A stretch of DNA of 47,480 nucleotides from an uncultured Christensenella sp. (GTDB taxonomy: Bacteria > Bacillota > Clostridia > Christensenellales > UBA1242). The notes beneath the pieces are model-generated. The model saw nothing but the letters and a program-made list of their open reading frames with translations. It searched no databases and had not been told where the DNA came from. The stretch lies in the NCBI GenBank assembly GCA_964554475.1, contig CAZKOT010000005.1, positions 1-47,480 on the forward strand, written 5' to 3'. Made by a program: the position numbers and the translations under genes. Positions 6,233 through 45,000 of the stretch are shown here, piece by piece; the first letter of the stretch is position 1, and every line of letters begins with the position of its first letter.

Positions 6233-6502
6233 ATGAAATTTATAAGTGATAAATACAAAGAAGAACTTTTAGCGAAAACTTTAGAATTTGAAACCATGTA
6301 TGGTGATTTGATCGAAAAAGTGCTTAACGAAAACACTAAAGAGATGCATACAATGCTAATGGAATCAGACTTTGAAAATTATCTGTTTTTAAACGAAATA
6401 GAAAAAACAGAACTTTCACAGGTGCAAAATGCTGATTTGGCTGATTTTAATTCTTATGAAAAGGAACTGGAAAAAATAGGAGATGGAACTGAAACGTGGT
6501 GA
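6233..6502 (+). CDS. acidic small protein, putative cognate antitoxin of the downstream MazF-like toxin (non-canonical)
   Basis: ORF track 6218..6502 starts at TTG. ATG at 6233 sits 9 nt after GGAG. Glu/Asp-rich. Its 3' end overlaps the toxin gene by 20 nt. No AbrB/RHH motif recognised. Confidence 0.45.
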
Positions 6503-6830
6503 GGTTTATTATGCAGATTTAAGCCCTGTTGTTGGAAGTGAACAGGGTGGAATTAGACCTGTTTTAATAATCCAAAATGACATAGGAAATAAGTTTTCGC
6601 CCACAATTATTATTGCAGCAATTACAAGTGTGTTAAGCAAGGCAAAAATTCCAACACATGTTGAACTTTCTTCAAATGAATATAATCTTCCTAAAGATTC
6701 CGTAATCCTACTCGAACAAATTAGAACAATTGACAAAAAACGTATCAAAGAAAAAATTACATCATTAAAAGATTTAAAAATGAAAGAAGTTAATCGAGCA
6801 ATACTTATTAGTCTTGGATTTGCACAGTAA
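6483..6830 (+). CDS. mazF: MazF/PemK-family mRNA interferase toxin
   Basis: 115 aa. [29 protein letters not shown]...[10 protein letters not shown] is the classic PemK/MazF N-terminal signature. Confidence 0.9.
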
Positions 6831-6835
6831 TTACA

Positions 6836-7118
6836 AAAAAATAACAAAATACAAAAAAATTTAGTGGTAGATTTGAATAATAAATAATATAAGAGTTAAG
6901 AGGTTTTTTATTCTTTAAATAATTCCCCTTTTGAGAGGGGTGCTCCGCCCGAGCGACAATTTGCGAATGCAAATTGCAGGAATTACGAAGTAATTCCGTC
7001 GTAGAGCGAGGGAGGAGCAGGGTGTGTAAAATTAAAAGATAAGTTTTTAATAATTCACATTAATAAATTTGCTATTTGGAATTTGTCATTATTTGTATTT
7101 TGTAATTTGATTTATAAC
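6836..7118 (-). repeat. composite repeat unit, copy A: AT-rich inverted arms around a ~108-nt GC-rich hairpin core (6921..7028, minus orientation)
   Basis: Perfect 12-nt inverted repeat acaaaatacaaa (6845-6856) / tttgtattttgt (7092-7103). The reverse complement of the core aligns along its whole length with 32191..32298. Confidence 0.7.
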
Positions 7119-7176
7119 TCTCAACACTCAATTCTCAACACTCAATTCTCAACTCTCAATTCTCAACTCTTAACTC
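7117..7176. repeat. short tandem CTCAA(C/T)(A)CTCAATTCTCAAC-type repeat array
   Basis: aactctcaacactcaattctcaacactcaattctcaactctcaattctcaactcttaactc. Related tracts at 12091..12123 and 46060..46110. Confidence 0.8.
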
Positions 7177-7182
7177 AAAAAC

Positions 7183-7986
7183 CTATTTAACTCTTAATTT
7201 TTTAAATATTGCTTTTACAATCATAACTACTGCTAAAATTATTATACTTACCAAAGCAATCGTTCCGCCAGGACGAAGATAGTAAGAAAAAATTAAACCT
7301 GCAGTCATTGAAATTAATGCAAATAAAATAGAATAAAGAATTGTGGAGCGGTAACTTTTTGCAATTTGTAATGAGGTTGCAGTTGGGATAACTATTAATG
7401 AAGAAACAATTAATGCTCCAACAACTTTTGATGCAATTGCAACAGTTAGAGCAGTTATTATTGTGAAAAAAATGTTTACAAGATTTACAGGAACACCTGA
7501 AAGTTTTGCATTGTTTTCGTTGTAAGAAATAAACATTAATTCTTTATAAAATATTATTGAAGTTATTACCACTACAGCAAAAACGCCAATTGTCAAAAAT
7601 AATTCGGTCATAGAGATTGAAACTATTGAGCCAAAAAGATAGCTGCTGAAATTTGCAATTGGCGTAAATGAAGAAAGAACGCCCGCTAATCCAATTCCTC
7701 CTGAAAGAACAATTGCAATTGCTATTTCGGAATATTTATAAAATTTTTTTCTTATTAATTCAATAATAAGCGCAGCAACAACACAAGTAAGCATGGCAAT
7801 GGGGAGAGGGTTTACACCCAAAATTAACCCGATTGCAATGCCTGCCAAGCTTGTATGACTTAAAGCATCCCCGGTCATTGACAGTCGTTTTAAAACAATG
7901 TTTGTGCCAATCAATGGAAGTGCTATTGCAAGCATTGTTCCAACCAAAAAGGCAATACGGACGAATTCATATTCAAACATTTTCAA
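7183..7986 (-). CDS. znuB: metal (zinc-type) ABC transporter permease
   Basis: 267 aa polytopic membrane protein of ZnuB/AdcB type. Its start overlaps the end of the upstream ATPase gene. Confidence 0.8.
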   Translation of the reverse strand: MKMFEYEFVRIAFLVGTMLAIALPLIGTNIVLKRLSMTGDALSHTSLAGIAIGLILGVNPLPIAMLTCVVAALIIELIRKKFYKYSEIAIAIVLSGGIGLAGVLSSFTPIANFSSYLFGSIVSISMTELFLTIGVFAVVVITSIIFYKELMFISYNENNAKLSGVPVNLVNIFFTIITALTVAIASKVVGALIVSSLIVIPTATSLQIAKSYRSTILYSILFALISMTAGLIFSYYLRPGGTIALVSIIILAVVMIVKAIFKKLRVK

Positions 7987-12044: not shown

Positions 12045-12123
12045 AAATTACATAATACAAAATACAAATAAGGAAACACAAAAAATTTTTAACTCTCAAC
12101 TCTCAATTCTTCACTCTCAACTT
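12045..12123. repeat. solo ACAAAATACAAATAAGG arm followed by a CTCAA-type repeat tract
   Basis: aatacaaaatacaaataagga (12056-12076), then aactctcaactctcaattcttcactctcaactt (12091-12123). Same two motifs as at 7092..7176. Confidence 0.7.
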
Positions 12124-12298
12124 AAAATATTACTTTCGTCAACAAGTGAGTGCAAGGTATTTAAAATTAATTATAAATTACAAAAAAATATGTCATATTC
12201 CTTTTGTTTTTAAAGTTAAATGTTTTAGAATAAATTATCTAATTAAATGATTTTTTGGCAAAATAGATTAAAATTTAAAAATATGCAAAAAATTATTT

Positions 12299-12358
12299 AA
12301 AAACTATATGTTGTGGTGATAATTTTGTTTGACACTAGATATTGTGTTTTGATAGTAT
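12299..12358 (+). promoter_or_regulatory. two NrdR boxes overlapping the nrdDG promoter
   Basis: aaACTATATGTTGTGg (about 12300-12316) and ACACTAGATATTGTGT (12332-12347), with equivalent positions 31 bp apart. TTGACA (12329-12334) and TGaTAGTAT extended -10 (12350-12358). Confidence 0.7.
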
Positions 12359-26721: not shown

Positions 26722-29139
26722 ATGCTAATGAAAAAAAGAAATTTTAAACTAATATTTATTTCGATTTTTACCTTGTTTTTAGGCATTACATCTTTGCCTT
26801 TTCTTTCTTTTAAAAAAAATCAAGTAGAAGCAAGAATTATTCCACCCGAAGCAATTGAAATTAACACAATTGAAAAACTTCAAAACATAGGAAATCTTTC
26901 CTATGTTGACCCAGATTATCCAGAAAATCAATATTCTTTAGATGCAAATTATGTTTTAACTTCAGACTTAGATTTTCGCACTGTTGATGAAATAGAAGGT
27001 GAAATTTTTGAAGAGTGGACACCGATTGGAATTAAATATGAAGGCGGGAGTGTTGTTTACGCTCCATTCACGGGAAAATTTTATGGTAATGGTTACAAAA
27101 TTAGTAATATGAGACTTGCGAACAAAATCTTTTCTTATTATGAATGTGGATTGTTTGGTTCGCTTTCGGGTGCTGAAATTTATGATTTGGCACTTGTGGA
27201 TTATGCGGTTTTTCTTACAAATATTTTAGCAGACATCATTAACAATAAAAATACTCTTTACATTGGTGGAATTGCCGGAAGAGTTTTAGATAGTGGTACA
27301 GAATTAAGCATTATTCAAAATTGTTTTGTTAGTTACAAAAAACCAACTACTTCCCCAGCAACAGTTTATAATAGTGTTTCGGGTAATCTTTCTTTAAATT
27401 TCGGTGGTATTGTGGGAGACTTTCAAAACGGAAGTATTATTTCTGATTCCTATAGTGATGTTTCAATGATTTTAAATATGCAAGGTGGGCAAGGAACCGG
27501 AATTACATTTGGTGGAATTTGTGGCTCGTTAATTTCATCAAGTATTTTCACCTCTCATTCAAAAGCTACAATTATTTCGTCTAGTTCGGGAGGAATCTCT
27601 GCAAGTGCAAAAACAAATGGTGGTGGCATTGCCGGTTATGTTAGTGGTGCTAACAGCAAAATTATAACCACTTATTTTAGTGGAAAACTTGAAGCTACAT
27701 CTGAAAACAGTTTAATTTCAATAGGAGGGATAATAGGTACAATAACACAATCCATGGGAATTACACCCGTAAATGGTAATCTCAATTATGCTCATTTTTA
27801 TGCAACAACAAATGATGATGTTCTTCTCACACAAGCAATTGGTGAAGCGTATTATTATTCAATTATTGATTTAGTTCTAAATAGTTTAACTCAAGATAAT
27901 TATGCGCTTTTTGATAGGAATACGGAGGATTATTTTTCTTTTTGGTCAGAAGATTATGACAAAATTTGGAATTTTGATAGTATTTGGTCATTCCATGCAG
28001 ATAGTTTACCCACGCTTCAAGTTTTTAAAGTTTATACAGTTAATTTAAATGAAAATACAACATTAATTGGTGAAAATTCAATTAAAATTTCTAGTCTACG
28101 TTTTGCTTTAGAAGAAACTATTGAACCTCCAATTTTATCAAAAAATTTTAGATATAACTCTCTTGTTGAAATTGTAATTACAATATTATCAGATAATCCT
28201 TTAACTGAAGATATTATTGAACCTGATTATAATAATTTTTATGAATTAGATTCTGTTAACATTGATTCACATTCAGTAATAGACAATCCTCTTTACACAA
28301 TAATAAATAACGAAACCGAGGAGGGTGAGAATAAAGGTGTTTGGACTTTTTCATATTACATTAATGACCAAACTTTGGGTAATGTTTCAATCAGTTTGCG
28401 AAAAATTCCTTTTGACATTACAGTTAAAACAGACAATCCTGAAATGGGAAAAGTTCAAAAGCAATATTCTTCAGTTGTTAATGAGTTTACCGAATCAGTA
28501 AAGGATTCAGTGGGATATCATTTTATCGCATCTCCAATTAATAATAATATTGCATTTTCTCATTGGGTTTTTGAATTTCCTCCTGAAGAAGAAGGGGGAG
28601 AATTTCAAATTGTTCCACTTGAGAGTGAGTTAAAAAATCTTGCTCAATTCGCTTTTACTTTTGGATTAAGTGGAAATGAGGAAATAACACAAGGCATATT
28701 AAATGGTGGTAAGTTAGTTGCAGTTTTTACAAGTAATATTTGTAAAATCGAATTTACTATGAGATTAACCGGTGGTGGTTCTACAAATGAGGCGGGAACA
28801 ATTAGTTACACAATCGGGGGTGAAAATGTTCCATTAGGAGAACAAATTGCTTTTGTTAAAGGAAAATCTATTACTCTTGTTGTATCACCGGAAGAAGGTT
28901 TTATTTTTGAGGGTTGGTTTGATGAGGAAAATAGATTTTTGTCAAGTCAAACTACTTATATTTTTACTCCGGAAAGTGATACTATGTCTGTTGTTGCAAG
29001 ATTTTCAGGCGGAGCAACTGAATCAAATTTACTATGGTTGTGGATTGTTTTAAGTGTTTTGGGTGCAGGCGGAATCGGAGTTGCAATTTTCTTTATTATT
29101 CGTTCAAAAAAGGATTCGGCATATAAAAATTTTTATTAA
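26722..29139 (+). CDS. large surface protein: signal peptide, GLUG-motif region, Listeria-Bacteroides (InlB B-repeat)-like module, C-terminal TM anchor
   Basis: 805 aa. Repeated GGI(A/V/C/I)G motifs (CGLFGS, IGGIAGR, FGGIVGD, FGGICGS, GGGIAGY, IGGIIGT). EGFIFEGWFDEE near the C-terminus. LWLWIVLSVLGAGGIGVAIFFIIRSKK anchor, no LPXTG. Confidence 0.7.
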   Translation: MLMKKRNFKLIFISIFTLFLGITSLPFLSFKKNQVEARIIPPEAIEINTIEKLQNIGNLSYVDPDYPENQYSLDANYVLTSDLDFRTVDEIEGEIFEEWTPIGIKYEGGSVVYAPFTGKFYGNGYKISNMRLANKIFSYYECGLFGSLSGAEIYDLALVDYAVFLTNILADIINNKNTLYIGGIAGRVLDSGTELSIIQNCFVSYKKPTTSPATVYNSVSGNLSLNFGGIVGDFQNGSIISDSYSDVSMILNMQGGQGTGITFGGICGSLISSSIFTSHSKATIISSSSGGISASAKTNGGGIAGYVSGANSKIITTYFSGKLEATSENSLISIGGIIGTITQSMGITPVNGNLNYAHFYATTNDDVLLTQAIGEAYYYSIIDLVLNSLTQDNYALFDRNTEDYFSFWSEDYDKIWNFDSIWSFHADSLPTLQVFKVYTVNLNENTTLIGENSIKISSLRFALEETIEPPILSKNFRYNSLVEIVITILSDNPLTEDIIEPDYNNFYELDSVNIDSHSVIDNPLYTIINNETEEGENKGVWTFSYYINDQTLGNVSISLRKIPFDITVKTDNPEMGKVQKQYSSVVNEFTESVKDSVGYHFIASPINNNIAFSHWVFEFPPEEEGGEFQIVPLESELKNLAQFAFTFGLSGNEEITQGILNGGKLVAVFTSNICKIEFTMRLTGGGSTNEAGTISYTIGGENVPLGEQIAFVKGKSITLVVSPEEGFIFEGWFDEENRFLSSQTTYIFTPESDTMSVVARFSGGATESNLLWLWIVLSVLGAGGIGVAIFFIIRSKKDSAYKNFY

Positions 29140-29210
29140 TTAATTTGGCATATCAATATTGCATATTAAAAAAAAGTGATTTAAAATGACATTGCTTTAA
29201 AATTAAATAA

Positions 29211-29250
29211 TTGCTGATAGAATTTAAGTTCTATTAGCAATTTTTATATT
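29211..29250 (+). terminator. Rho-independent terminator after the surface protein gene
   Basis: ttgctgatagaa (29211-29222) / ttctattagcaa (29229-29240) plus T-run. Confidence 0.7.
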
Positions 29251-29265
29251 TTTATTGAGGTTTAA

Positions 29266-29571
29266 ATGGAAGGAGAAATCACTGATAAAAAAAGAAAAAG
29301 TTTAGAAAAAGCTCTTTTAAAAAAAGCATTAGGTTACAGTTTTGATGAAATTATTGAAGAGTACACATTAAACAAAAACGGAGAATTAAAACTTGCAAAA
29401 AGAAAAGTAACTAAAACATTTGTTCCTCCCGATATTCCTGCTGCAAAAGTTTTGCTTGAAAGTGGTGTGACAGAAAATCAATTTTCGAATATGACAAAAG
29501 AAGAACTTTTGGCAGAAAAACAAAGACTTTTAAAAGAATTAGCAGAAAGTCAAAAAAAAAATAAAAAATAA
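29266..29571 (+). CDS. small basic protein, possibly a phage terminase small-subunit-like DNA-binding protein
   Basis: 101 aa. ALGYSFDE...KRKVTKTFVPPDIPAAKVLLE resembles the conserved stretch of Firmicute phage TerS proteins. Sits at the head of the capsid module. Weak, from memory only. Confidence 0.35.
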   Translation: MEGEITDKKRKSLEKALLKKALGYSFDEIIEEYTLNKNGELKLAKRKVTKTFVPPDIPAAKVLLESGVTENQFSNMTKEELLAEKQRLLKELAESQKKNKK

Positions 29572-29580
29572 AAGTTTTTA

Positions 29581-29735
29581 GTAAACACCCCGTCAAGTCT
29601 TCGCTCTGTGACCGATTTACTTCGTAAATTCTGCAATTTGCTCAAATGCTCGGGCGTTGCCACCAGTAATTCCTGCAATTTGCTTGACACAAATTGACGC
29701 ACGGGCGGGGAATTATGTAGCGCAAACGCAAAAAA
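29581..29735 (+). repeat. GC-rich hairpin element, copy C (internally part-duplicated)
   Basis: Collinear with 32191..32298: caccccg..., gatttacttcgtaaatt hairpin, ctgcaatttgc present twice, gc(a)cgggcgggg. The overlapping minus-strand track ORF 29550..29798 is judged spurious. Confidence 0.65.
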
Positions 29736-29772
29736 ATCGTAATTAAAAAAAAGAAATAAAAAGGAGAATGAA

Positions 29773-29979
29773 ATGGAAATTGAAAAAGCACTAATCAAAG
29801 TTAAGTGTGATTTTTATGGTTGTAAAAATATGGCTGATTTTTCATTTAAAACAAGAAAAGTTTTTCAAAAAGAATTACATTTTTGTCGAAGTTGTTTAAA
29901 CGACCTTTACAGTGCAATAGGAAAAAATATTGTTCCAAAAGCAGCTGAAACACCATTTAAGAAAAAATCAAAAAATTAA
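29773..29979 (+). CDS. small zinc-ribbon protein (CxxxxC...CxxC), unknown function
   Basis: 68 aa. AAAGGAGA RBS. Cys pairs at CDFYGC and CRSC. Confidence 0.5.
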   Translation: MEIEKALIKVKCDFYGCKNMADFSFKTRKVFQKELHFCRSCLNDLYSAIGKNIVPKAAETPFKKKSKN

Positions 29980-30172
29980 TTTGTAAATAATAATTAACGG
30001 TAGATGAAGGAAAAAAGTAATTTAATAAAATAAAAACATTTGCTTTGCGAGCAAGCAATGATGAAATAAGTACAAGTAACATAACTAAAGAAATTTTTTC
30101 TTTATTTTTTCTTTATTTGTACTTTGAACTAATGCCTAACATAAAGCAAATTTTATTTCTAAGGAGATTTTA

Positions 30173-32077
30173 ATGAAAGAAAAGAATATGCAAAAATCTA
30201 ATCAACACATATTTAATCAAATTGACGGTGGTAATTTTGAGCAAAAAATTGCAAAAGAAGTTACAGAAGATTTTAAAAAACGTCAAATGCAAAAAAAAAG
30301 CTTTGAAACACAATGGCAATTAAACATGAATTTTTTGATGGGTAATCAATACTGCTCTGTGGGTTATAACGGAGAAGTAGAAGAATTTGAAAAGCAATAT
30401 TTTTGGCAAGAGCGTGAAGTTTACAATCACATTGCTCCATTAATTGAAATTAGGCTTGCAAAACTTCAAAAAGTTAGGCCGAGTATGGCAGTTGTCCCTG
30501 CAACAGGTGATGAGAAGGATATCAAAACAGCAAAAATTTCAAAAAAAATTATTAATAGTATTTACAACAACAAAGACATCAGTGAAATGATTAATCAAGC
30601 GACTCGTTGGAGTGAAATTTGTGGAACTAGTTTTTACAAGGTAACATGGAATTCTCAAGGTGGAGATAAAATTAAAAATGTTAGCAGTGGAGAGGTTGAT
30701 ATTTCTGTTATTTCTCCATTTGAAATTTTTCCTGAAAACTCAAATTGTGAACGACTTGAAGATAATCGAAGCATAATCCATGCAAGAGGTTATCATGTTG
30801 ACTTAATAAAAAATATTTGGGGAGTTGATGTGGAAGGTGAGGAAATTGATGTTTTTTCACTTGACCAAATAAACAAAACTATAGGGGGACTAGAATACAA
30901 TGGTTTTACAACAAAATTAATTAAAACAACTAGAGAAAATTATGCAATTGTTATTGAAAAATACGAACTTCCGACAGAAGAATTTCCTAACGGTAGACTT
31001 TTAATTGTTTGTGGAGGAAAACTTTTACATGTAAATGAATTACCCTATATTAACAAGACAAATGGCGAACGCGGATATCCTTTTATTAGACAAACTTGTA
31101 TTCAAAATATTGGCTGTTTTTGGGGAAGTAGTGTAATTGAAAGAATTATTCCTATTCAACGTTCTTACAATACAATTAAAAACAGAAAACATGAATTTCT
31201 TAACAGACTTTCAATGGGAGTTTTAACTGTTGAAGATGGTTCGGTTGACATTGGAAATTTGGAAGAAGAAGGACTTAGTCCAGGAAAAATTTTAGTTTAT
31301 CGCCAGGGTTCTTCTCCGCCACGATATATGTCAAATACTTCAATTCCAATTGATTTTGCTGCCGAAGAGGAAAAACTTTTAAATGAAATTATGCTAGTCA
31401 GTGGAACTTCAGATTTGTTTAGAGACCGTTCAGCCTATACTTCAAATTTAAGTGGTGTAGCGCTTCAATTATTAATTGAACAAGATGATTCTAGATTGTC
31501 AACTTCAGCGGAGCGAATAAGGGAATGCATTAAATCGTTAGCACAACATATTTTAAGACTTTACAAACAATTTGCATTAATTCCACGTCTCACAAAAATT
31601 GTGGGAGATAATGGTGAAATTGAAGTATTTTACTTTTCAAAAGGTGATATTACAAGTGATGATATTATTTTTGAAACCCAAAATGATTTAGGTGAAACTC
31701 TTGCACAAAGACGAAGCATGGTTTTTGAACTATTAAATGCGGGATTACTTTATGATGAAAACGGTAAACTTTCAAATAGGATGAGAGTTAAAGCACTTGA
31801 CCTTTTAGGTTTTGGAATTTGGGAAAATGCTCAAGACATAAACGAACTTCATTTAAAAAAGGCATCGGGCGAAAATCTTGAACTTTTGGAAGAAAAAAAA
31901 ATTGAAGTTTTGGAAATTGACGATCATGATATTCACATTGGAGAACATATTACTTTTATGTTAGGAAGTGAATATAAAAAACGGGAAGAAACAAATTTGA
32001 AGGAAAAAATTTTGGAGCATATTAGAATGCATAAGAAATTGAAAAAGTTACAGGGGGAAATTGAAATCAAAACTTAA
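30173..32077 (+). CDS. phage portal protein
   Basis: 634 aa. WQLNMNFLMGNQY N-terminal portal motif. Its size and its position before the scaffold and capsid genes fit. AAGGAGA RBS. Confidence 0.75.
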   Translation: MKEKNMQKSNQHIFNQIDGGNFEQKIAKEVTEDFKKRQMQKKSFETQWQLNMNFLMGNQYCSVGYNGEVEEFEKQYFWQEREVYNHIAPLIEIRLAKLQKVRPSMAVVPATGDEKDIKTAKISKKIINSIYNNKDISEMINQATRWSEICGTSFYKVTWNSQGGDKIKNVSSGEVDISVISPFEIFPENSNCERLEDNRSIIHARGYHVDLIKNIWGVDVEGEEIDVFSLDQINKTIGGLEYNGFTTKLIKTTRENYAIVIEKYELPTEEFPNGRLLIVCGGKLLHVNELPYINKTNGERGYPFIRQTCIQNIGCFWGSSVIERIIPIQRSYNTIKNRKHEFLNRLSMGVLTVEDGSVDIGNLEEEGLSPGKILVYRQGSSPPRYMSNTSIPIDFAAEEEKLLNEIMLVSGTSDLFRDRSAYTSNLSGVALQLLIEQDDSRLSTSAERIRECIKSLAQHILRLYKQFALIPRLTKIVGDNGEIEVFYFSKGDITSDDIIFETQNDLGETLAQRRSMVFELLNAGLLYDENGKLSNRMRVKALDLLGFGIWENAQDINELHLKKASGENLELLEEKKIEVLEIDDHDIHIGEHITFMLGSEYKKREETNLKEKILEHIRMHKKLKKLQGEIEIKT

Positions 32078-32099
32078 CATAAAAAAAAACACAAAAAAT

Positions 32100-32365
32100 T
32101 ACAAATAACAAAATATAAAATACAAATAAGGAATAATTAATATTTAATTAATTTATAAATCCTTATTTGTATTTTGTAATTAAAAATGAATACACACCCC
32201 GCCACTCCCTCGCTTATTGACGGATTTACTAGTGTAAATCCTGCAATTTGCCAAAGGAAATTGACGCTCGGGCGGGCAAAACCCCTCTCAAGAGGGAATT
32301 ATTAAAGGACTTATAGTTTAAAAAACCTTATTTGTATTTTGTATTTTGTTTTGTAATTTGTATAG
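32100..32365 (+). repeat. composite repeat unit, copy B: AT-rich arms plus a 108-nt GC-rich hairpin core (32191..32298)
   Basis: aaaatacaaataagga (32117-32132) pairs with tccttatttgtatttt (32160-32175). ccttatttgtattttgt recurs at 32326-32342. The core contains three hairpins (ggattta/taaatcc, caattt/aaattg, ccctct/agaggg). Confidence 0.75.
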
Positions 32366-32379
32366 AAATTGGAGGATAA

Positions 32380-33039
32380 ATGGAAAAAAATATAACAAGT
32401 CCCAGGGAACAACCCATCAGTTTGCCTGCAACATCCACAGAGGTGGAAAATGTAAAAGAAAGCGTTGAAGAAAATGTGCAGCAGCAACAATGTGGCTCCC
32501 TTGGAAAATTTAAAGACGCCGAAAGTTTACTCAATGCCTATAACAATTTGCAGGCAGAGTTTACAAAAAAGTGTCAATCACTTAGTGAAATAAAATCAAA
32601 AATTGAGAACACGCAAGAAAAAAAAGAAAGCGTGCCAATTTATGAAAAAGAAAACTGGGTGGAAAAGGTAACTTCGTTTTTATGTGAAAACAAAGATGCC
32701 AAACCTTTTGCCAAAGAAATAGCACAAAACATTATTGCAGATGAAGAACTTGCTTCAAAAGAAAATGCTTTGGAACTTGCTTGGGCAAAAGTTGCATCGT
32801 CAAAATATGTTGCTCCCGAACGAGCGGTTGAAGACGATGCGTTTGTTAATAATTACATTTTAAAAAGTGAAAAAATTAAAAGTGCGGTTTTGGATATGAT
32901 GTTAAAAGAAATGGCAAAAAACAATCCGCCAAAAGTTATTGCTTCGGAGCAAAAAGGAAGTTCGGCACCGTTTTCTAAACAAAAACAAGCAACTTCACTT
33001 TCTGAGGCGAAAGAAATGGTTAAACAGATGTTTAATTAG
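32380..33039 (+). CDS. phage scaffolding protein
   Basis: 219 aa, acidic, helical. GKFKDAESLLNAYNNLQAEFTKK motif is typical of Firmicute phage scaffolds. Lies between the portal and capsid genes. Confidence 0.6.
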   Translation: MEKNITSPREQPISLPATSTEVENVKESVEENVQQQQCGSLGKFKDAESLLNAYNNLQAEFTKKCQSLSEIKSKIENTQEKKESVPIYEKENWVEKVTSFLCENKDAKPFAKEIAQNIIADEELASKENALELAWAKVASSKYVAPERAVEDDAFVNNYILKSEKIKSAVLDMMLKEMAKNNPPKVIASEQKGSSAPFSKQKQATSLSEAKEMVKQMFN

Positions 33040-33186
33040 AATGCAAAGTGAGTAAAAGTTCAAATTACATATACAAGATACAAAATACAAATAAGAAAAT
33101 TTATCCCATTTGAATTATGTAATTTATATTTTGTGATTTTGAAATTATTAATTAAAAAATTTATAAAAAATTTAAGGAGGAAGTAA

Positions 33187-34401
33187 ATGGTTACACTAAC
33201 AAGTGCCGACAACGCCTTAAAATCGGTTTATTTGGGCGTTGTTGCAAATCAATTAAATATTAATGCAAACCCTTTGCTTGCAAAAATAAAACAGTCAACT
33301 CAAGATGTTTGGGGCAAAGAAATAATAAAACTTGCACCTTACGGTATTAATGGGGGAATCGGGGCAGGAGATGAAACCGATCCACTCCCAACCGCTGCTG
33401 CAAATAATTATGTTCAATTCAAATCCACCTTAAAAAATCTTTACGGAAAAATAGAACTTTCAGATAAGGCAATCAGGGCATCAGCAAACAATGCTGGTGC
33501 TTTCGTAAATCTTTTAAATGATGAAATGGAAGGATTGATTAAAGCAAGTAGTTTCAATTTCGGAAGAATGCTTTACGGAGATGGAAGCGGACTTTTAGCA
33601 ACGGTTACAGCTTACACAGCGGCAACAAAAGCAATAACGGTTGACAGTGTTCGCAATTTGATTGAAGGTATGGTTGTTGATTTTTTTGATGGTTCAACAA
33701 AAGTAACAGATGCAAGTGGCTACAGAATTACCTATGTTGACAGAACAAACAAGCAATTATTTTTAAATCTTCCATCAAACTTTAGTGCCGAAACAATTGT
33801 TGCGACTCAAACAATTTTTATTCAAAACTCAAAAGGATATGAAATTACTGGTTTAGGAGCAATTTTTGACACTACAGCAACAACTCTTTATGGTCTTACA
33901 AAAACAGATTATCCTTGGTTAAAACCATATGTTAGTACTGAAGAAACGGAAATCTCTGACGGTTTAATCCAAGGGGCAATCGACTTTTTGGAAGAAGCAA
34001 GTGGAAGTCAAGTAAACTTTATTGCTTGTGCAAGTGGTGTTCGCAGAGTTTATCAAGAGTATTTAGGCGCATACAGAAGAAATATTGATGTTATGGAACT
34101 TGCCGGCGGCTATAAGGCAATAACCTATAACGGCATACCAGTTGTCGCCGACAGGTTTGTTCCCGAAGGAAGTATGTTTTTGTTAAATACAAATGATTTC
34201 ACCCTTCATCAACTTTGTGATTGGAAATGGCTTGAGGGTGAGGACGGCAGAGTAATAAAGCAAAATGTAGGATATCCGACCTATAGTGCAACGCTTGTTA
34301 AATATGCAGATTTAATTTGCGACAAACCTTGCGGACAAGCAGTAATAAAAAATATTTTGTCAACTGTTACAAATCCATTTCAGGTTATAGTTCAAAGTTA
34401 A
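33187..34401 (+). CDS. phage major capsid protein
   Basis: 404 aa. Strong AAGGAGGA RBS. Position after the scaffold gene. The size and glycine-rich motifs fit an HK97-fold coat protein with an insertion domain. Family not assignable by eye. Confidence 0.65.
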   Translation: MVTLTSADNALKSVYLGVVANQLNINANPLLAKIKQSTQDVWGKEIIKLAPYGINGGIGAGDETDPLPTAAANNYVQFKSTLKNLYGKIELSDKAIRASANNAGAFVNLLNDEMEGLIKASSFNFGRMLYGDGSGLLATVTAYTAATKAITVDSVRNLIEGMVVDFFDGSTKVTDASGYRITYVDRTNKQLFLNLPSNFSAETIVATQTIFIQNSKGYEITGLGAIFDTTATTLYGLTKTDYPWLKPYVSTEETEISDGLIQGAIDFLEEASGSQVNFIACASGVRRVYQEYLGAYRRNIDVMELAGGYKAITYNGIPVVADRFVPEGSMFLLNTNDFTLHQLCDWKWLEGEDGRVIKQNVGYPTYSATLVKYADLICDKPCGQAVIKNILSTVTNPFQVIVQS

Positions 34402-34450
34402 TACTTTTTCGCTTAACAGTTTAACAGTATAAAACAAAAATATTAAAACT

Positions 34451-34525
34451 TACTTCGTTTTTGACTAAATTCGCTACTTGTCCTTGCAAATTGCGAACGC
34501 AAAATTATGTTAGGGCAAGTTGAGA
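34451..34525 (+). repeat. degenerate copy D of the GC-rich hairpin element
   Basis: Retains ttacttcgt (hairpin-1 loop of copies A and C) and gcaaattgcgaacgcaaaatt (hairpin-2 equivalent), inside the outer pairing acttgtcc/gggcaagt. Confidence 0.4.
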
Positions 34526-34640
34526 AATGAGAATATTTTAAATCTTTTGTGAGTAGAGCTGAATTATTAGTGATTAAAAAAAATAATTATTTACTAATAT
34601 TCGGCTCTTTACTCATTTATTAAATTTTTAGGAAATTGAA

Positions 34641-34916
34641 ATGAAAATTAAAATTGATAGTGATGTTTTTGAAATAACGAAACGTTTAAAAGCAATTGAC
34701 AATTCGTATTTCGTTTTATTTAACACACTTAAAAATTGCTATGAACTTCACAGTGAAAATCAACCTCACACAAGTTTTTGCTTAACTTTAGCTTTTAATT
34801 GTCTAGATGAACGAACAATCAACTTAACATTAAAAACTAGAAGTGAAAATAGAAAAATATTGTTTGAAGAAATTGAAAAAAATAATCAAAAAATAATGAA
34901 AAATGAACATGTTTGA
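34641..34916 (+). CDS. hypothetical phage-module protein
   Basis: 91-aa ORF, weak RBS, no recognisable family. Confidence 0.4.
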   Translation: MKIKIDSDVFEITKRLKAIDNSYFVLFNTLKNCYELHSENQPHTSFCLTLAFNCLDERTINLTLKTRSENRKILFEEIEKNNQKIMKNEHV

Positions 34917-34956
34917 AAAATCAATTACTAAATGCTTAAATAAAGTTATTACATCA

Positions 34957-34991
34957 ATACAAAATGCCTTATACATTTTGTATGGTTTTTA
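34957..34991 (+). terminator. hairpin plus T-run inside the phage module
   Basis: atacaaaatg (34957-34966) / cattttgtat (34974-34983), followed by ggttttta. Confidence 0.6.
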
Positions 34992-35039
34992 TTCCTAAAA
35001 TAAATTTTGAAAGATTGACTTTCAATTAAAAGGAGCAAT

Positions 35040-35609
35040 ATGCAAGTCAAAGAAATTTTGGAACTGGCATGTGTTTTTTTGGGAATGGACGAAGTTTTGG
35101 AAGATGAATACTTCACCGGAAATCCTGAAGGTGGCGATGATTCAACCGAAAAAGAAATTTCAAAACTATTAAAATGCTTAAATTTAATTGTTAATGAAAT
35201 TTCATCCGATTATCTTCCTCTTTTAACCGAGGAAGATGTTGTTTTTAATGATGAAAAATTATATTACACTGAACTCGACAAAACAATTTTGGAAGTTTTT
35301 TCTTTAAAAGATTTCAATGGTCGTGCCATTTCATTTAAAACTTTTCCAGAATATATTTCTGCAAATGTTCAAAATGCTTTACTTACCTACAGTTTTCAAC
35401 CTCAGGAACTCGAACAAGATGATGTCATAATTTATTATGGTGGAAAAATTCCCCCAAGAGTTTATGCCTATGGGGTTGCTATGGAGTATCTTTTTATTAG
35501 TAGTCAAAGTGACGAAGCGCATATTTGGGAAAAACGATACAAAGATTGCCTGTGTGAGATTGTTAGAAAAAAAAGTGAAACAAAACTTCCTTCACGGAGG
35601 TGGATTTAA
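35040..35609 (+). CDS. putative head-to-tail adaptor protein
   Basis: 189 aa. AAAGGAG RBS. Its stop overlaps the next start (TAATG). The assignment rests on position and size only (comparable to P22 gp4 / T7 gp11). Confidence 0.4.
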   Translation: MQVKEILELACVFLGMDEVLEDEYFTGNPEGGDDSTEKEISKLLKCLNLIVNEISSDYLPLLTEEDVVFNDEKLYYTELDKTILEVFSLKDFNGRAISFKTFPEYISANVQNALLTYSFQPQELEQDDVIIYYGGKIPPRVYAYGVAMEYLFISSQSDEAHIWEKRYKDCLCEIVRKKSETKLPSRRWI

Positions 35610-37123
35610 TGTTTAAACGAAAAGATTTACTTTTAAAAAAAATTAAAAAGTTTAAACTCACTTATTCTTCATTTGCAAATGGAATGAACACTGAAATTGA
35701 TGAAAATCTACTGCCCATTAAATATGCAAAAAAATTTTTTAATTTTTCAGTTAAAAGTGGTGCGTTAAAATCAGGTATGGGGTTTTCAGCATTATCTTTA
35801 CCAAAATATTATACAAGCGATGAAGAAAGATTAATCCCCGTTGTTAATCCCGATGAGGCAATTCTTTCAATTTGGCATTTTCCCTACTATCATGAAGACT
35901 CAAAAATAATTAGAAATAGTATTCTTTTTTACACTTCAACCGAACAGCTATTTTTTTTCCGTACGGTTTGGCAGTTTTCATCTTACTATACTTTGTTTAA
36001 TCCAACTCAGTATTTTAGCGGAAAAATGAATGCAATATATTACAAACTTAACGGGGTTGACAGTATGCTTATTTTTGTTCCCGAAGAGCAAAAGATTATT
36101 ATATTTCCCAAAACCGAAATTCCTCAAGTCATTACAGACACGCCTAATTTGGTTGATATTTGTCTTCACTATGAACGTCTTTTTGCAATTTTGGATGGTG
36201 ACCGAAAAACACTAATGTTTAGTGCTAATCTTGATCCTACAAATTGGGATGTTGAACTTTCAGAAGGTGGATTTATTGAACTTGCTGATGAGCGTGGAAG
36301 CATTAATAAAATTGTTTCTTTTAATGACTTTGTTTATGTTTTTCGTGATTATGGAGTTACAAAAATTTCAGCATATGGCGAACAAGAACAGTTTAGTGTT
36401 ACTCAACTTTTTAAATCATCGTCTAAAATTTATGGTAATTCTGTTGCTTGTTGTGGTGATAGAATTTTATTTCTTGCACGGGACGGTCTTCATGTTTTTG
36501 ATGGCTATTCAACATCAAAAATAATTCTTAACATAGAAAGCATGTTTGAAAATATTAACAACGAGAATTGTTTTGGAGTTTATTTTAACAGTAAGTATTA
36601 TTTGGCATGTAAACTTAATTTTAATGATGATGATCAAATAGGTTGTGAAAATTATAGTGGTGGTTATGTAAATAATGCTCTTATTGAATTTGATATAAAA
36701 ACGGGTGATTTTAACATCTTACGAGGAGTTGACATTCTTAATATGATTGCAATTGAAGAATTAAATATTTCAAAACTTGTTGCTTGTTTTAATGGAGAAT
36801 TTAAAAATCGTTTTGGACAACTTGACAAGAGTGGAAAAATTTTTGGAAATGTTTTGAGTAAGCAATGGCTCTCACCCCTTTCTAATTTCGGTTATCCAAA
36901 TCAAAAAAAAATTGTGCAAGAGGTTTTAATTAAATCAAAGTCTAATTGCAAGATTATTATTAAATCAAATTTAGAAGAAAAAACTTACACGATAAAAGGT
37001 AGTGAGGTTACACAACGCGTTAAAACTAATGTTCGTGGAGAATTAATTCAAATTAAGTTTATTTGTGATGAAGAAGGAGATGTTGAAATTTCAGCACCTC
37101 AAATTATTTTTGGTGTTGTTTAA
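35609..37123 (+). CDS. putative neck/tail-hub protein (position and size comparable to P22 gp10)
   Basis: ATG 35609 lies 8 nt after GGAGG and is coupled to the previous stop. About 505 aa. Repetitive beta-rich pattern (…VYVFRDYGVTKIS…ILFLARDGLHVFDG…). Confidence 0.4.
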   Translation: MFKRKDLLLKKIKKFKLTYSSFANGMNTEIDENLLPIKYAKKFFNFSVKSGALKSGMGFSALSLPKYYTSDEERLIPVVNPDEAILSIWHFPYYHEDSKIIRNSILFYTSTEQLFFFRTVWQFSSYYTLFNPTQYFSGKMNAIYYKLNGVDSMLIFVPEEQKIIIFPKTEIPQVITDTPNLVDICLHYERLFAILDGDRKTLMFSANLDPTNWDVELSEGGFIELADERGSINKIVSFNDFVYVFRDYGVTKISAYGEQEQFSVTQLFKSSSKIYGNSVACCGDRILFLARDGLHVFDGYSTSKIILNIESMFENINNENCFGVYFNSKYYLACKLNFNDDDQIGCENYSGGYVNNALIEFDIKTGDFNILRGVDILNMIAIEELNISKLVACFNGEFKNRFGQLDKSGKIFGNVLSKQWLSPLSNFGYPNQKKIVQEVLIKSKSNCKIIIKSNLEEKTYTIKGSEVTQRVKTNVRGELIQIKFICDEEGDVEISAPQIIFGVV

Positions 37124-37173
37124 GTCATAAAGATTAAATGTTGCTTAAAAGCAAAAATATAAGGGAGGAAAAA

Positions 37174-38118
37174 ATGTATCAATTTAATTTTTCGGATGAA
37201 GATAGCGAAGAAATTGTAAAAAAGGCAACAAAACTTGATGAGTTGTTTAAATCATTTGCAGATATTGACAAAAAATTTGACCTTTCAAGTAAAATTTCAG
37301 AAGAGGACTATAACAAAAAACTTGACTTAAAACGTCAAGAGTTTGAAAAAGCAAATGACGAAGAAGTGAAAAAAGAAGCAGAAAATAGTTTGCATGATTA
37401 CAAAACAACTTCAAAAAATCAAATAGAAAATGAGTATTTAGAAAAAGGAGAAGCAATAGACAAAACATTAACATCTCTTTCTGGAAGCAAAGAGGGGGCA
37501 AAAAGCGAAATCGAAAAAGCATATAAAACGGCAAAAGATAATGCTTCAAATGATGCAATAAAACGAGGACTAGCTCGCAGTTCAATTATTGTCAATAAAC
37601 TTGCTCAATATGATGAATCATATTTAAACGAGTTTACAAAAATTGAAAAAAATTATGCTGACACGGTTTCAAAACTTGATGCAGAAAAAAATTTGTTAGA
37701 AGTTCAAAGACAAAGCGCACTTGATAATTTTGATATTTCTTATGCAGTTAAACTTTCCGAAAAAATTGAGGGAATTAACGAAAAATTAGATGCAAAAGAA
37801 AAAGAAGTGATTGAATATAACAATAAAATACAGCAATTGGAAAAAGAATTTGAATTAGAGCAACAAGAGTTAAAAAGTAAAGATGAAAAAGAAAGTAAAA
37901 AAAGCAATTTAGATTTATTAAAATATATTTCACAATACGGCTCAACCACTCTTGACCGTTTTAAAGAGCAAGAAAAATACAGCCTTGCTTACAATTATTT
38001 AATGTCATTACCAAAGGGTCAGGCAATTTTTGAACTTGAAGAAAATTCTAATTTTAAAAATAATTTAAAAACATTATTTACAAAGTTGCAGAGCGAAATT
38101 AAGAATAGAAAAAATTAG
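37174..38118 (+). CDS. coiled-coil phage structural protein (plug/needle or internal protein candidate)
   Basis: ATG 37174 follows AAGGGAGGA (track ORF starts 37138). Lys/Glu-rich heptad-like sequence throughout. Confidence 0.4.
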   Translation: MYQFNFSDEDSEEIVKKATKLDELFKSFADIDKKFDLSSKISEEDYNKKLDLKRQEFEKANDEEVKKEAENSLHDYKTTSKNQIENEYLEKGEAIDKTLTSLSGSKEGAKSEIEKAYKTAKDNASNDAIKRGLARSSIIVNKLAQYDESYLNEFTKIEKNYADTVSKLDAEKNLLEVQRQSALDNFDISYAVKLSEKIEGINEKLDAKEKEVIEYNNKIQQLEKEFELEQQELKSKDEKESKKSNLDLLKYISQYGSTTLDRFKEQEKYSLAYNYLMSLPKGQAIFELEENSNFKNNLKTLFTKLQSEIKNRKN

Positions 38119-38250
38119 TGCTTGATGGCAAGGTTAGTAAAATTGAGGATAAAAGATTTTGCTTCTTTTGCTATTTCTTAAATTTTATTATTCATTATCT
38201 AAATATTAATTATTTAAGAAAACAGATGATTTTAGACAGGAGGTTAGTGT

Positions 38251-38556
38251 ATGATTTTTGAAGATATTTTAACCATGGCAATTAGCAATGGTATTTTTGC
38301 CGTGTTATTTGTTTTTCTTCTATTCTATCTTTTAAGAGATAGTGCAAATCGAGAAAAAAAATATCAGGAGACTGTTGAAAAACTTGCAAAACATCTTGAT
38401 ATTGTAGAAGATATGAAAGATGATGTTTCAAATATTAAAGAAGATGTTTTGGAAATTAAAAATATTGTGATTTTTAAAGGAAAAAAAGAGAAAAGTCAAA
38501 ATACAGAGAACAAATATAAAAGCTTTAATTTTAATAAAGATACGGAGGAAAAATGA
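38251..38556 (+). CDS. BhlA/UviB-family holin-like protein
   Basis: 101 aa. N-terminal TM (GIFAVLFVFLLFYLL) followed by RDSANREKKYQETVEKL, as in the BhlA/UviB family. Confidence 0.5.
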   Translation: MIFEDILTMAISNGIFAVLFVFLLFYLLRDSANREKKYQETVEKLAKHLDIVEDMKDDVSNIKEDVLEIKNIVIFKGKKEKSQNTENKYKSFNFNKDTEEK

Positions 38557-38807
38557 AAATTAAAAGTTATTCGTTTTGGACTTCTCTTTCAGCGGCGACG
38601 GTAATTATTGTAAAAACAATTTGTGAAGCATTTGGGCTTGAATTTGAAGAAAAAATTGTCGGAGACATTATTATGGCAATTTGCGGACTTTTGGTTGTTT
38701 TCGGAGTTGTTACAATGCCGAGTAAAAAAGAGAGTACTGAAGTAAAAGAAAAAATTGAAAAGAAGGAAAGTGAAGAAAATATTATTGACGACAGAGAAAA
38801 TAAATAA
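38553..38807 (+). CDS. phage holin (two TM helices)
   Basis: 84 aa. FWTSLSAATVIIVKTICEAFGL...IIMAICGLLVVFGVVTMP with a charged tail. ATGA overlap with the previous gene. Confidence 0.6.
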   Translation: MKIKSYSFWTSLSAATVIIVKTICEAFGLEFEEKIVGDIIMAICGLLVVFGVVTMPSKKESTEVKEKIEKKESEENIIDDRENK

Positions 38808-41485: not shown

Positions 41486-41822
41486 ATTTAATTAGGTAAT
41501 TATTTTTAAAAAAAATGGCAATTAATGAAGAAAAGCTTTTTTTTGCAAGACATTTCGCTCTTGTTCTTCGTTAAGATTTTTTTTGCATTGATATTATATT
41601 TTAAGTACAAGCATTATTTTTATTTGAGTGAAAAAAAACTGATTTCCATCATGCAAAACACTTAATTTTTTTTCTAAAGATATATTAAAAATATTGTTGA
41701 GTTTTAATACCCCTTCGCATTTATCCTAATGGATTTGGCGTTGGTTCAAACACTGCTACATTTGGCGGCGAGTGGCAAGACTATCCAAACATTTTCACTA
41801 CGAGTTTTTATAAGAAAAACTA

Positions 41823-41985: not shown

Positions 41986-42082
41986 TATAAATGTAAGAAA
42001 TCATTTTAAATAAGGCGAAAAAATTTTTCAATTAAAACACAAGTATGAAAAAAAGCAAATTATAAAAAAATTTGAGGTACGG

Positions 42083-45000
42083 ATGAAAAAATATAATGTC
42101 AAATTAAATATTGTTTTTCAAACACTAATGATTTTATTAAGTGTGTTTAGTGTTGTAATTGGTTCATTATTTGTTTCTTATTCGTCAAATAAAGTATTCG
42201 CAAATTTTAATCCTTTAATGGTACAATATAACCAAACTCAAGAACAGGAAAGCTCAAGTGACAAAAAAAATATTGAAATTACCACCTACAAACTAAATGA
42301 TAACACTGGATACAATATTAATAGCAGTGATCAAATTTCAAATGATAATCATTTATTAAAAGATGCAAATGAAATTGGAAAAACATTTTTAAATCTTTCA
42401 GTGATTGCAGAGAGTGATTTTCCTCAAGGTGAAACAAGTGACGGCAGAGTTGGGGCATTTATTGAAACAACAAATGAGCAAAATTTGTTATTGAAACAAA
42501 ATGGAATCAATGCTTATGGTGTTTCAGGTTCACGTGTTTATATTGGTCTTAATTACAATTTTGACAAAATTTTAGGCTTTGTAAATTATGAAAATGTTCC
42601 AAAAGGAACAAAATCAAATATTGAATTTTCATCTGATACAGCGACTTCAATTGGCGGAAAAACTGTTGGTGAAATTAAGTATGGCGGAATTTTAATTCAA
42701 AAAAAGACTTCAATTAATGACATTTATCAAATGCAAACAAAGCAAGGAGAAACTTTTGATAATATTCACACAACAGACTTAACAACTTGGTTTAGTCCAG
42801 AAATCTATGTTAATGGTTATGAAACTGCTAAACTTTTTCAGTTAAGCGGACAAGACATTAATAATGGAGTTTTCATTCAAATTCAATTTGCATATGAGTT
42901 GAAATATACATATAGTTGGCATGAGCAAGCAGATTTTTGGCATTGGTGGGGTGAAGACAAAAGCGAAACGGTTTATGTCAATATGTTGGAAGTTGCCGAG
43001 TTTTATGTTGTACAAAATTCAGGAGTTGTTTCCTTTCACAATGCATCAACAACTAGCACAGTTGAAAACGAAGGAACAAGTGAGGCAGTTAGGCAGGCAG
43101 GGACAATTTTGAGCGGACACACAAGTTTTAATGGATTTAGACTTAACACTTTGGGAGCGAGTTACCAAGTTGAATATAGTAAAAATTTTTCTTCATTTGC
43201 TTTGGCAGAAGACGGGCAATTTTTCAGTGAGCAAGGCAGATATGATTTTAAAATCACAACCAAACTTGGAAAAGTTCGAGAGCATGTTATTTTTATTGAT
43301 AAGCGAGAAATTAATGATGCGGTTTGGGCATATTTTGGAGAAAGTTTGCTAACAAGCAAGGGAGATAGTGAAGAGAGTCTTGACAGTTATCGTCTTTTCA
43401 CAACTGGAGAGTTACCGACCTATTTAGCCGAGCAGACATATTATCACTTGAATAGTTTAAACAATTTATTTGCAAAAGCATATGGCAGAATTTACAAAGA
43501 ATCTGATGTTGAAGGTGACGAACGAGTTTTTATTGCAGAAATAACACAGGAAAATCCTGATGGCACAATTTTGGAGGAAGGAATTTACACAGCCGATTTT
43601 TATACTGATTATGGGGCATATGGCGAAGCTTTTGGAATTTCGAATTGTGGCAGTTCAAGCGGTGACAGTTATCATTTTATCTTCAAATTTGAAGTTGTGG
43701 ATAAGGAAACCCCGAGTAATCCATTTGTTAATGAGGAGTACTTAAACTCTTTCATTTCTGTTTCAGATTTAATGGCAAAGTATTATGCAATAACTCTTCA
43801 AAGTTCTGGAACTGGAAAAGTGGCATTTGCCTTTGCTGATTATTTTGGAGCATATAATTTTGCATACAATTACGAACGAAGTTTTATTGAAATTTTGGGA
43901 GATAATCAATTTCAATACAAATCTCTTGATGACCCTCAAATCTTAAATATTTACAACTCTCAATTTTCAGTTTTAGAGGCAGTTGATAAATATGCAGAGG
44001 AATTAATTGAAATTAAATATTTTGATGCAAGTGAGCCACAAACTTATCAAACAGCAAATATTGCCGATGAAGCGGTTTTAAATTTTGAATTTGAAGAAGA
44101 TATTGTTATATTTCTAAATGACATTGAACAAGAACTTGCAACTGATAGTAATAATTTTTTAAATGGACGAAAATATCGAAGTGTTAATTCTGACGGAACT
44201 ATTTCTGATGGAATTATTTATCCAACATTTTTGGCAGTTGGTGAATTTGAAACAAAAACCATTACTTTAATTAACAAGACTGACCCAACAATAGAGTTTA
44301 ATATTGTGTATGGTGTTTCCATTGAACAACAACTTTTAGAAGTAAATGCCCCAAGTGGAAAATATATTGTTAAAGAAGAAAACAAATACGGAACAATAAG
44401 TGAATATGAGGTTACATATATTTGTAATGGAGAAATGAGTGGAGTTGTTACTTTTGAAGTTTTCCATAACGGAGAAACGGAAACAAAAATAATAACCAAC
44501 CTTAACAATGAGCAAACAATTTTTGCAAATGGTTTTGTTTTAAAGAGTATAACAAATGAATTAGACAAGCATTCAATTATTAAAATTTCAAAGGACGGAG
44601 CGCAACAAAATATTTTTGAATTTAACGAAGTTCAAGATTTGATTTTTTATGAGGCAGGAGAATATCTTTTTACTTTTGTTGACAGACTAGGTAATTTGTT
44701 TAATTATAATGTTATAATTACTGACCAAGTTGGCTATCAAAACATTTCTTTTGTTAGTGAAGATGAAACAGTTCAAAACACATTTGCTTTTATTGGACAA
44801 ACAATAACCTTTCCAATTCCAGATGTAGCAGAGGGTTTTGAATTTATGGGCTGGCAATGTGGCGAAATTTTTGCGCCTGTAGGAGAAAATTTTACATTAA
44901 TTTCAAATGAAGACTTAGATTTTGTTGAAGTTTTACATTTTATTGAAACCACAATTACTTTATATGACGGAGAAATTTATACAACACTCACAGCAAAGCC

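Follow-up and report, generated by a model that had tools for sequence, protein, structure and literature searches.

The 47,480-nt stretch of DNA analyzed here, called the window below, carries in several of its intergenic spacers a GC-rich segment that can fold into hairpins. This raises the question of whether the segment is a structured RNA kept for a function at the 3′ ends of genes or a repeat that spreads as DNA. The contig is chromosomal, with ppdK, metK, znuACB, mazEF, a patatin-like gene, a gene for a metallo-beta-lactamase-fold protein, nrdDG, and acc and fab genes, and its NrdD is at most 80% identical to those of MAGs labelled uncultured Clostridia or Catabacter, which places the source in an uncultured, low-GC lineage of gut Clostridia without a close genome in the collections searched. 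Four copies had been proposed in a preliminary description, and we delimited them as follows.

6921-7028, minus strand: copy A, the best-preserved core (covariance model, 110 bits)
29580-29715, plus strand: copy C, a full-length core with a 55-nt insert (57.8 bits, model positions 1-94)
32191-32298, plus strand: copy B, the reference copy of the GC-rich core (covariance model, 115 bits)
~34455-34517, plus strand: copy D, a probable decayed remnant (local alignment score and orientation only)

BLAST analyses revealed 78% identity over 120 nt between copies A and B (E 4.8e-20), and copy C matched both of them in two blocks (E 5e-5 to 4e-7). A covariance model of 94 positions and 19 pairs, built from A and B and run over the whole window with its filters off, returned B, A, and C only; the remaining matches had E values of at least 0.15 and corresponded to palindromes read in reverse. 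Judged by these similarities, the dispersed repeat family that had been claimed is genuine. The sequence and coordinates of copy B were as first quoted, as were hairpins 1 and 2 of copy A on its minus strand and of copy C. The core is approximately 95 to 110 nt long, except in copy C, where it reaches 136 nt.

The boundaries of copy C had to be redrawn. It had been placed at 29581-29735, and the model instead gave a full copy at 29580-29715. Glocal alignment of this copy covered the entire model and located a 55-nt insertion inside the loop of hairpin 2, this insertion being itself a partial second copy of the core. Copy C is therefore full-length, and a reading of it as truncated was rejected. 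The fourth copy stood only in part. In a collinear, plus-orientation local alignment copy D scored 16 to 17, compared with 9.5 to 9.9 for shuffled sequences (standard deviation, 1.4), a level reached by 0 to 2 of 500 shuffles, and six other spacers scored at most 13. However, neither the covariance model nor BLAST matched copy D within the window, and both hairpins 1 and 2 are destroyed in it. Copy D is thus probably a decayed remnant, as far as its sequence tells, which brings the family to three significant copies, plus this remnant, within 47 kb.

The cores stand out by composition, with a GC content of 0.55 to 0.62 in 40-nt windows against approximately 30% for the window as a whole. With the exception of a SAM riboswitch and an island near 41.7 kb, no intergenic spacer is as GC-rich. 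Open frames cross the core, including a 39-codon ORF with an ATG start in copy B. We rejected a coding micro-ORF, as these frames are broken by indels and are not conserved between copies, and none of the ORFs overlapping the core is a called gene in a collection of 15 billion proteins. Two further candidates were discarded. A template and variable repeat pair of a diversity-generating retroelement (DGR) does not fit, the reverse transcriptase being absent and the differences not being specific to adenine. An sRNA gene with its own promoter does not fit either, no promoter-like match being found beside copies B or C.

We then asked where the copies lie. Copy A is found between the convergent genes znuB-like (7183-7986, minus strand) and mazF (6483-6830, plus strand). 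The other copies are between co-directional genes of a phage-like cluster: C separates a gene for a 101-aa TerS-like protein from one for a 68-aa protein, B occupies the 302-nt spacer from the portal to the scaffold gene, and D is 3′ of the major head gene. The identities first given to the upstream genes were confirmed, namely, an ABC-3/ZnuB-type permease, a P22-like portal, a weakly TerS-like protein of 101 aa, and a major head protein.

The phage-like head and lysis cluster extends over 26722-38807 on the plus strand. It codes for a Glug-like protein of 805 aa, the TerS-like 101-aa and the 68-aa proteins, a P22-type portal, a scaffold protein, the major head protein, three more structural proteins, a DUF7934-like protein, and two holins. 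Housekeeping genes surround it, and in one related lineage, L198, ppdK is located between the large terminase and the portal genes. The window copy of the cluster has no large terminase gene. The portal belongs to a family with 5667 matches at E<=1e-20, and the cluster may be a conserved, domesticated phage-derived system.

At least five related lineages of gut Clostridia (L189, L190, L192, L195, and L198) carry a collinear version of this cluster, with amino-acid identities of 52 to 82%. We compared the gene junctions, whose lengths are listed here in nucleotides.

101-aa gene to 68-aa gene: window 201; L189 -1; L190 11; L192 -11
68-aa gene to portal: window 193; L189 50; L190 17; L192 -1
Portal to scaffold: window 302; L189 13; L190 10; L192 2
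Scaffold to major head: window 147; L189 -26; L190 44; L192 12
Major head to next gene: window 239; L189 76; L190 65; L192 153

For L195 and L198, the portal-scaffold gap is 11 and 23 nt, respectively, so that it ranges from 2 to 23 nt in the five lineages compared with 302 nt in the window, and in the relatives the ribosome-binding site comes straight after the stop codon. Because the orthologous junctions are so short, the spacers of the window are, on this comparison, lineage-specific gains, inserted past the stop codon and ahead of the ribosome-binding site. The inserted look of the element, noted from the outset, is therefore confirmed by nearly empty junctions in all five lineages. As these lineages are other species, with portals 73 to 75% identical, their empty sites indicate gain rather than current or recent mobility. 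The znuACB-mazEF arrangement that harbors copy A was not syntenic in the relatives fetched.

The preliminary description had also pointed out two direct copies of a 17-mer, ccttatttgtattttgt, on either side of copy B and an inverted copy further upstream, and had likened the arrangement to a MITE insertion. All three copies are real, with one mismatch in the inverted one (32115-32131). The 17-nt direct repeat is nevertheless not a target-site duplication but an arm of a separate, dispersed AT-rich repeat. Allowing up to 3 mismatches, the corresponding motif, ACAAAATACAAATAAGG, is matched 9 times in the window, where 1.3 matches would be expected. Its sense copies come right after stop codons, at 12057, 32115, and 33080 on the plus strand and at 7087-7103 on the minus strand, that is, after the metallo-beta-lactamase-fold, portal, scaffold, and znuB-like genes, respectively. 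Inverted copies are present at 32161, 32326, and 6844. The sense copies can pair with T-rich copies downstream to form long AU hairpins, which may be the terminators of this organism or a second, SPRITE-like repeat family. The arms and hairpins are as follows.

6839-6858: AT-rich arm beside copy A, partner of 7089-7108
7089-7108: AT-rich arm on the znuB side of copy A, partner of 6839-6858
12049-12076, plus strand: AT-rich arm motif after the metallo-beta-lactamase-fold gene, exact 17-mer, no GC core (repeat families D4/D6)
32096-32181, plus strand: AT-rich hairpin directly after the portal stop codon, with an A-rich arm ending in ACAAAATATAAAATACAAATAAGG and a T-rich arm CCTTATTTGTATTTTGTAATT
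32326-32362, plus strand: second T-rich arm, 3′ of core B, exact 17-mer, pairing with 32096-32131 and enclosing the insert
33080-33134, plus strand: stand-alone AT-rich hairpin after the scaffold gene, motif with 1 mismatch, no GC core

In the portal-scaffold spacer, core B follows a complete AT-rich hairpin, whose inverted repeat (32111-32141/32151-32181) is 31 nt long and 84% complementary, and precedes the second T-rich arm. A further inverted repeat, 32100-32125/32337-32362, surrounds the copy, and the entire 302-nt spacer is predicted to fold with an outer stem of approximately 34 bp (-82 kcal/mol, z -7.9). Core A is likewise enclosed, by arms of 20 nt that are 90% complementary and 230 nt apart. 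The stand-alone hairpin after the scaffold gene has arms of 22 nt (33080-33101/33113-33134) with 82% complementarity. Since the core of copy C comes without AT-rich arms and a core is missing at two arm sites, the GC core and the AT-rich arms are separable, nested modules. The core itself lacks terminal inverted repeats, its ends ACACACCC and GGGAATTAT not being inverted repeats of each other, and no flanking target duplication was seen at copies A and C.

The GC core is associated not only with the AT-rich module but also with 14-nt tandem repeats. The unit TTGAGAATTGAGAG and its variants occur at 7116-7180, 12091-12127, and 46058-46094, in three intergenic spacers and in either orientation relative to the neighbor gene. 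A diverged trace of it, GTTGAGAAATGAGAAT, is present 3′ of remnant D.

We next examined the predicted structure of the core, whose elements are given below.

32198-32203/32271-32276, plus strand: closing helix of copy B, in a register common to A, B, and C
32222-32229/32234-32241, plus strand: hairpin 1 of copy B, 8 bp, GGAWTTAC/GTAAWTCC
32244-32249/32258-32263, plus strand: hairpin 2 of copy B, 6 bp, CAATTT/AAATTG core
32283-32287/32292-32296, plus strand: 3′ hairpin of copy B, CCCTC-UCAA-GAGGG
6940-6925, minus strand: 3′ hairpin of copy A, CCCCT/AGGGG with a 6-nt loop

Hairpins 1 and 2 are shared by A, B, and C, while the 3′ hairpin is found only in A and B. The closing helix (alignment columns 9-15 with 130-136) and the two hairpins fit one register for the three copies, in which 95 to 98% of the cells are paired, compared with 25 to 56% when the partners are slid. 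Copy A forms the closing helix in the register of B and C by using two U.G pairs, which makes the alternative helix ascribed to it unnecessary. Its 3′ hairpin, reported as cccctc/gagggg, also had to be corrected. Comparisons with shuffled sequences gave z scores of -5.5 for copy A (-42.7 kcal/mol) and -3.2 for copy B (-36.9 kcal/mol) in the sense orientation, and of only -0.8 for copy C. With z scores of -3.8 and -3.6, the antisense strands of A and B fold about as well as the sense strands. A scan for terminator-like features was passed by the 3′ hairpin of copy A only; that of B failed and C has no such hairpin, so that an intrinsic terminator, i.e., a GC-rich hairpin followed by a U-tract, is not a property of every copy.

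Variation in the stems of A, B, and C amounts to one compensatory pair in hairpin 1 (A-U to U-A), three broken cells, and four one-sided changes, all of which give G.U or U.G pairs on the sense strand. The latter hint that the sense strand is the one that folds, or that some strand-specific constraint operates. Covariation scores as high as the observed ones were obtained in 166 to 178 of 500 column shuffles, the counts being made on the same three sequences from which the structure was derived. With only three sequences and minimal variation, a selected structure thus receives no statistical support. Selection acting on the RNA, as argued for in the preliminary description, is not borne out, given a single compensatory pair, shuffles that do equally well, and copies C and D that are rearranged or eroded.

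The orientation of the copies had been offered as evidence for such selection. All of them, A, B, C, and D, are indeed sense to the gene upstream, as originally stated. Copy A points the opposite way from B and C, while the cumulative GC skew rises throughout the window, which argues that orientation follows transcription rather than replication. The sense bias stands as an observation, but as an argument for RNA selection it rests on three or four copies, three of which are in one operon.

To determine how far the family extends, databases and related genomes were searched. Rfam 15 at gathering thresholds gave 0 matches over the whole window, and permissive scans of A, B, and C yielded unrelated noise of at most 16.5 bits, with a different family at each copy, in agreement with the initial view that the element corresponds to no Rfam family. 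As a positive control, the permissive scan recovered the SAM-I aptamer at 41.8 bits. This S-box riboswitch aptamer (3498-3604, plus strand), upstream of metK, is an observation in its own right: its P4 stem is missing, so that it remains below the gathering score of 44.4 bits and goes unreported in a default Rfam scan.

A blastn search of phage and plasmid records returned nothing relevant. Scans with exact patterns, which would miss diverged relatives of the core, were similarly negative. The pattern CTGCAATTTG-N6-30-GCTCGGGCG matched 8 loci in IMG/VR, all by chance in coding DNA; a hairpin-agnostic pattern gave only chance matches among the IMG/VR matches listed; a 27-base pattern satisfied by A, B, and C had 0 matches in the GTDB species genomes; and the pattern scan of JGI metagenomes found 98 loci, all attributable to chance and mostly in GC-rich genomes. 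The covariance model was also run on 56 related loci taken from around nrdD or the portal gene (838 kb in all) and on nine more portal loci (142 kb, of which ~83 kb were new), without a match. BLAST of ~0.9 Mb from related genomes, anchored on NrdD or the portal, detected no copy of the core, and 11-mers of the GC core and of hairpin 2, as well as the AT-arm motif, had only single, chance-level matches in the loci of the relatives. Within the collections searched, copies were thus confined to this window and lacked covariation support, an outcome that the preliminary description had itself set down as speaking against its proposal.

The only trace of the same organism, obtained by exact-protein look-up, consists of 1- to 2-kb Logan contigs of SRR8925737 (L009 and L010). 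These contigs end 53 nt past the portal stop codon, near the first AT-rich arm, and ~309 nt past the mazF stop codon, in the 14-nt repeat tract. The positions of these ends suggest that the repeat modules are multicopy in the genome.

Taken together, these data are best explained by a lineage-specific, non-autonomous small interspersed repeat, selfish or neutral, a reading to which we assign a probability of about 0.6. It is ranked first because the element is species-restricted, approximately 100 nt long, foldable, modular, and nested, is located downstream of genes or where genes of an operon adjoin, and has copies at various stages of decay. The indels among copies, the internal duplication in C, and the erosion of D are expected of neutral repeats. 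Against this reading count the lack of terminal inverted repeats and of target-site duplications at the core, the fact that the three or four visible copies are all sense, and the restriction of the four one-sided stem changes to G.U or U.G pairs on the sense strand.

The main competitor, which we regard as unlikely, is a cis-acting RNA module under selection, transcribed with the 3′ end of the gene upstream and acting as an mRNA stabilizer, a processing site, or a modulator of termination or read-through. It would account for the sense orientation of every copy, even of A, the one inverted copy on a stretch whose skew is uniform, for the common closing helix and two hairpins with their high proportion of paired cells, for the compensatory change and the four G.U changes on the sense strand, and for the terminator-like 3′ hairpin of copy A. 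However, column shuffles reach the observed covariation, the structure was derived from the sequences on which it was judged, and folding is about as good on the antisense strands. In B the 3′ hairpin does not pass as terminator-like; C lacks it, carries a 55-nt insertion, and folds no better than shuffled sequences (z -0.8); and D has lost both hairpins. Moreover, the orthologous operon functions without the module in five related lineages, with junctions of 2 to 23 nt. A variant that combines mobility with function appears more doubtful still: the GC core would be a strand-specific RNA module that has reached the operons of this lineage by traveling with the AT-rich terminator-like hairpins or by targeting them, serving in 3′-end stabilization, RNase processing, or (anti-)termination, i.e., a mobile cis-regulatory RNA cassette without a counterpart in Rfam.

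The mobile unit might also be larger than the core. A MITE of ~255 to 270 nt with the AT-rich arms (ATTACAAAATACAAATAAGG...) as its terminal inverted repeats would carry the GC core as an internal passenger, with C and D as fragments and the lone AT hairpins as core-less relatives. The arms that enclose copies A and B, the stability of the folded B spacer, and the excess of the arm motif speak for such a unit. We nevertheless consider it rather improbable, as copy C has a core without arms, arms without a core are found at 33080-33134 and 12049-12076, and an extra arm copy intervenes in B between the left arm and the core. In addition, a target-site duplication outside the arms cannot be defined, an IS with such ends is not available, and the position of the sense arms, always right after stop codons, fits AU-rich, terminator-like hairpins of the SPRITE type equally well. 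Least probable is a double- or single-stranded DNA site for a protein, such as a recombinase (attC-like), an IS200/IS605-type transposase, or an operator-binding factor. Two adjacent short palindromes with invariant arms, the presence of TGCAATTTGC in every copy, and the lack of terminal inverted repeats and target-site duplications, as in systems that recognize hairpins, would be in keeping with it. The palindromes, however, are internal and dissimilar, unlike the matching subterminal hairpins at both ends that mark IS200/IS605-derived elements, no cognate gene is present in the window, the 5′ flanks of the core differ between copies (TTTT, GAAT, and TAGT), and orientation, with A inverted, is independent of the replication strand. 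An attC site was rejected, as no R′/R″ core sites (GTTRRRY) were seen by eye.

An interspersed repeat of the preferred kind has several precedents. BOX, RUP, and SPRITE are small, non-coding interspersed repeats of ~100 to 200 nt in the pneumococcus, a low-GC Firmicute (Croucher et al. 2011, PMC3049150). Like the element, they form strong predicted stem-loops once transcribed, are confined to one species or close lineage, and are overrepresented 3′ of genes and in the spacers of convergent gene pairs (PMC3049150). They are also modular, clustered, or nested, and decayed or rearranged copies are common (PMC3049150, PMC10969869). SPRITE resembles the AT-rich arm module in forming a long AU-rich duplex near the 3′ ends of coding sequences. 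In contrast, there is no sequence similarity between these repeats and the element, and BOX and RUP have terminal inverted repeats, target duplications, and a candidate IS partner, none of which the core shows. In this comparison the element is represented by the three or four copies seen in the window.

ERIC and BIME-REP sequences share with the element that they are intergenic, transcribed, imperfect palindromes within or at the end of operons. REP sequences are single palindromes of 20 to 40 nt with a conserved GTAG-type head, mobilized by RAYT transposases. ERIC is one long imperfect palindrome of ~127 nt, unlike the element, which consists of a closing helix and two independent hairpins. 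No conserved tetranucleotide accompanies hairpin 1 or 2 in copies A, B, and C, and no Y1 transposase gene is present in the window. Both ERIC and BIME-REP have orientation-dependent effects on mRNA stability or attenuation (summarized in PMC3049150). Classical MITEs such as Correia and bcr1 (reviewed in PMC10969869) are likewise small, non-coding, multicopy, foldable, and intergenic, as is the element with its three copies of 95 to 136 nt and one remnant, and in A and B inverted repeats bracket the core as well. These bracketing repeats, however, belong to a separable AT-rich module, and the core has neither terminal inverted repeats nor a demonstrable target duplication nor a known parent IS. 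By analogy, the element most likely belongs to the same class as BOX/RUP/SPRITE, ERIC/BIME, and the Bacillus cereus bcr repeats.

The interspersed repeat that we favor would thus be a GC-rich module of ~95 to 110 nt, combining a closing helix with two short palindromes side by side and, as a rule, a 3′ hairpin, and copied at the DNA level, by an enzyme or by recombination, into the intergenic spacers of a gut Clostridia genome of ~30% GC. No transposase, RAYT, or IS is found in the window. The module would land after a stop codon and ahead of the ribosome-binding site that follows, often nested with the AT-rich hairpin module, whose long inverted repeats surround the core in A and B. Given their location within operons or at operon ends, the copies are probably co-transcribed with the upstream gene, in sense orientation, and would be able to fold in its mRNA. 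Any effect at the RNA level would be a by-product or an occasional co-option, for instance, in 3′-end protection or partial termination, with copy A at the 3′ end of znu as the best candidate. The copies would subsequently decay one by one, as C and D appear to have done.

If this reading is correct, the element adds one more species-restricted small interspersed repeat, and its modules point to a reason why short-read assemblies of this organism fragment. It would also represent a recent expansion of spacers within an otherwise compact and conserved phage-derived gene cluster, and might serve as a marker for strain typing. Should the sense bias and the association with AT-rich hairpins hold genome-wide, the element would exemplify how transposition can carry a structured RNA module to the operon junctions and 3′ UTRs of this lineage.

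Other features of the window were recorded. An ORF of at least 1822 codons (42014-47479, plus strand) runs off the window end, and a tblastn comparison gave no match at E<=1e-5 between it and the C-terminal part of a 4393-aa giant protein that L190 encodes beside its phage-like cluster. The 594-nt spacer upstream of this giant ORF contains the GC-rich island mentioned above (41700-41790, 0.57 GC in 40 nt), which is unrelated to the element. Upstream of nrdD, at ~12303-12348 on the plus strand, two palindromes, AAACTATATGTTGTGG and ACACTAGATATTGTGT, are ~30 nt apart; judged by eye, they resemble NrdR boxes.
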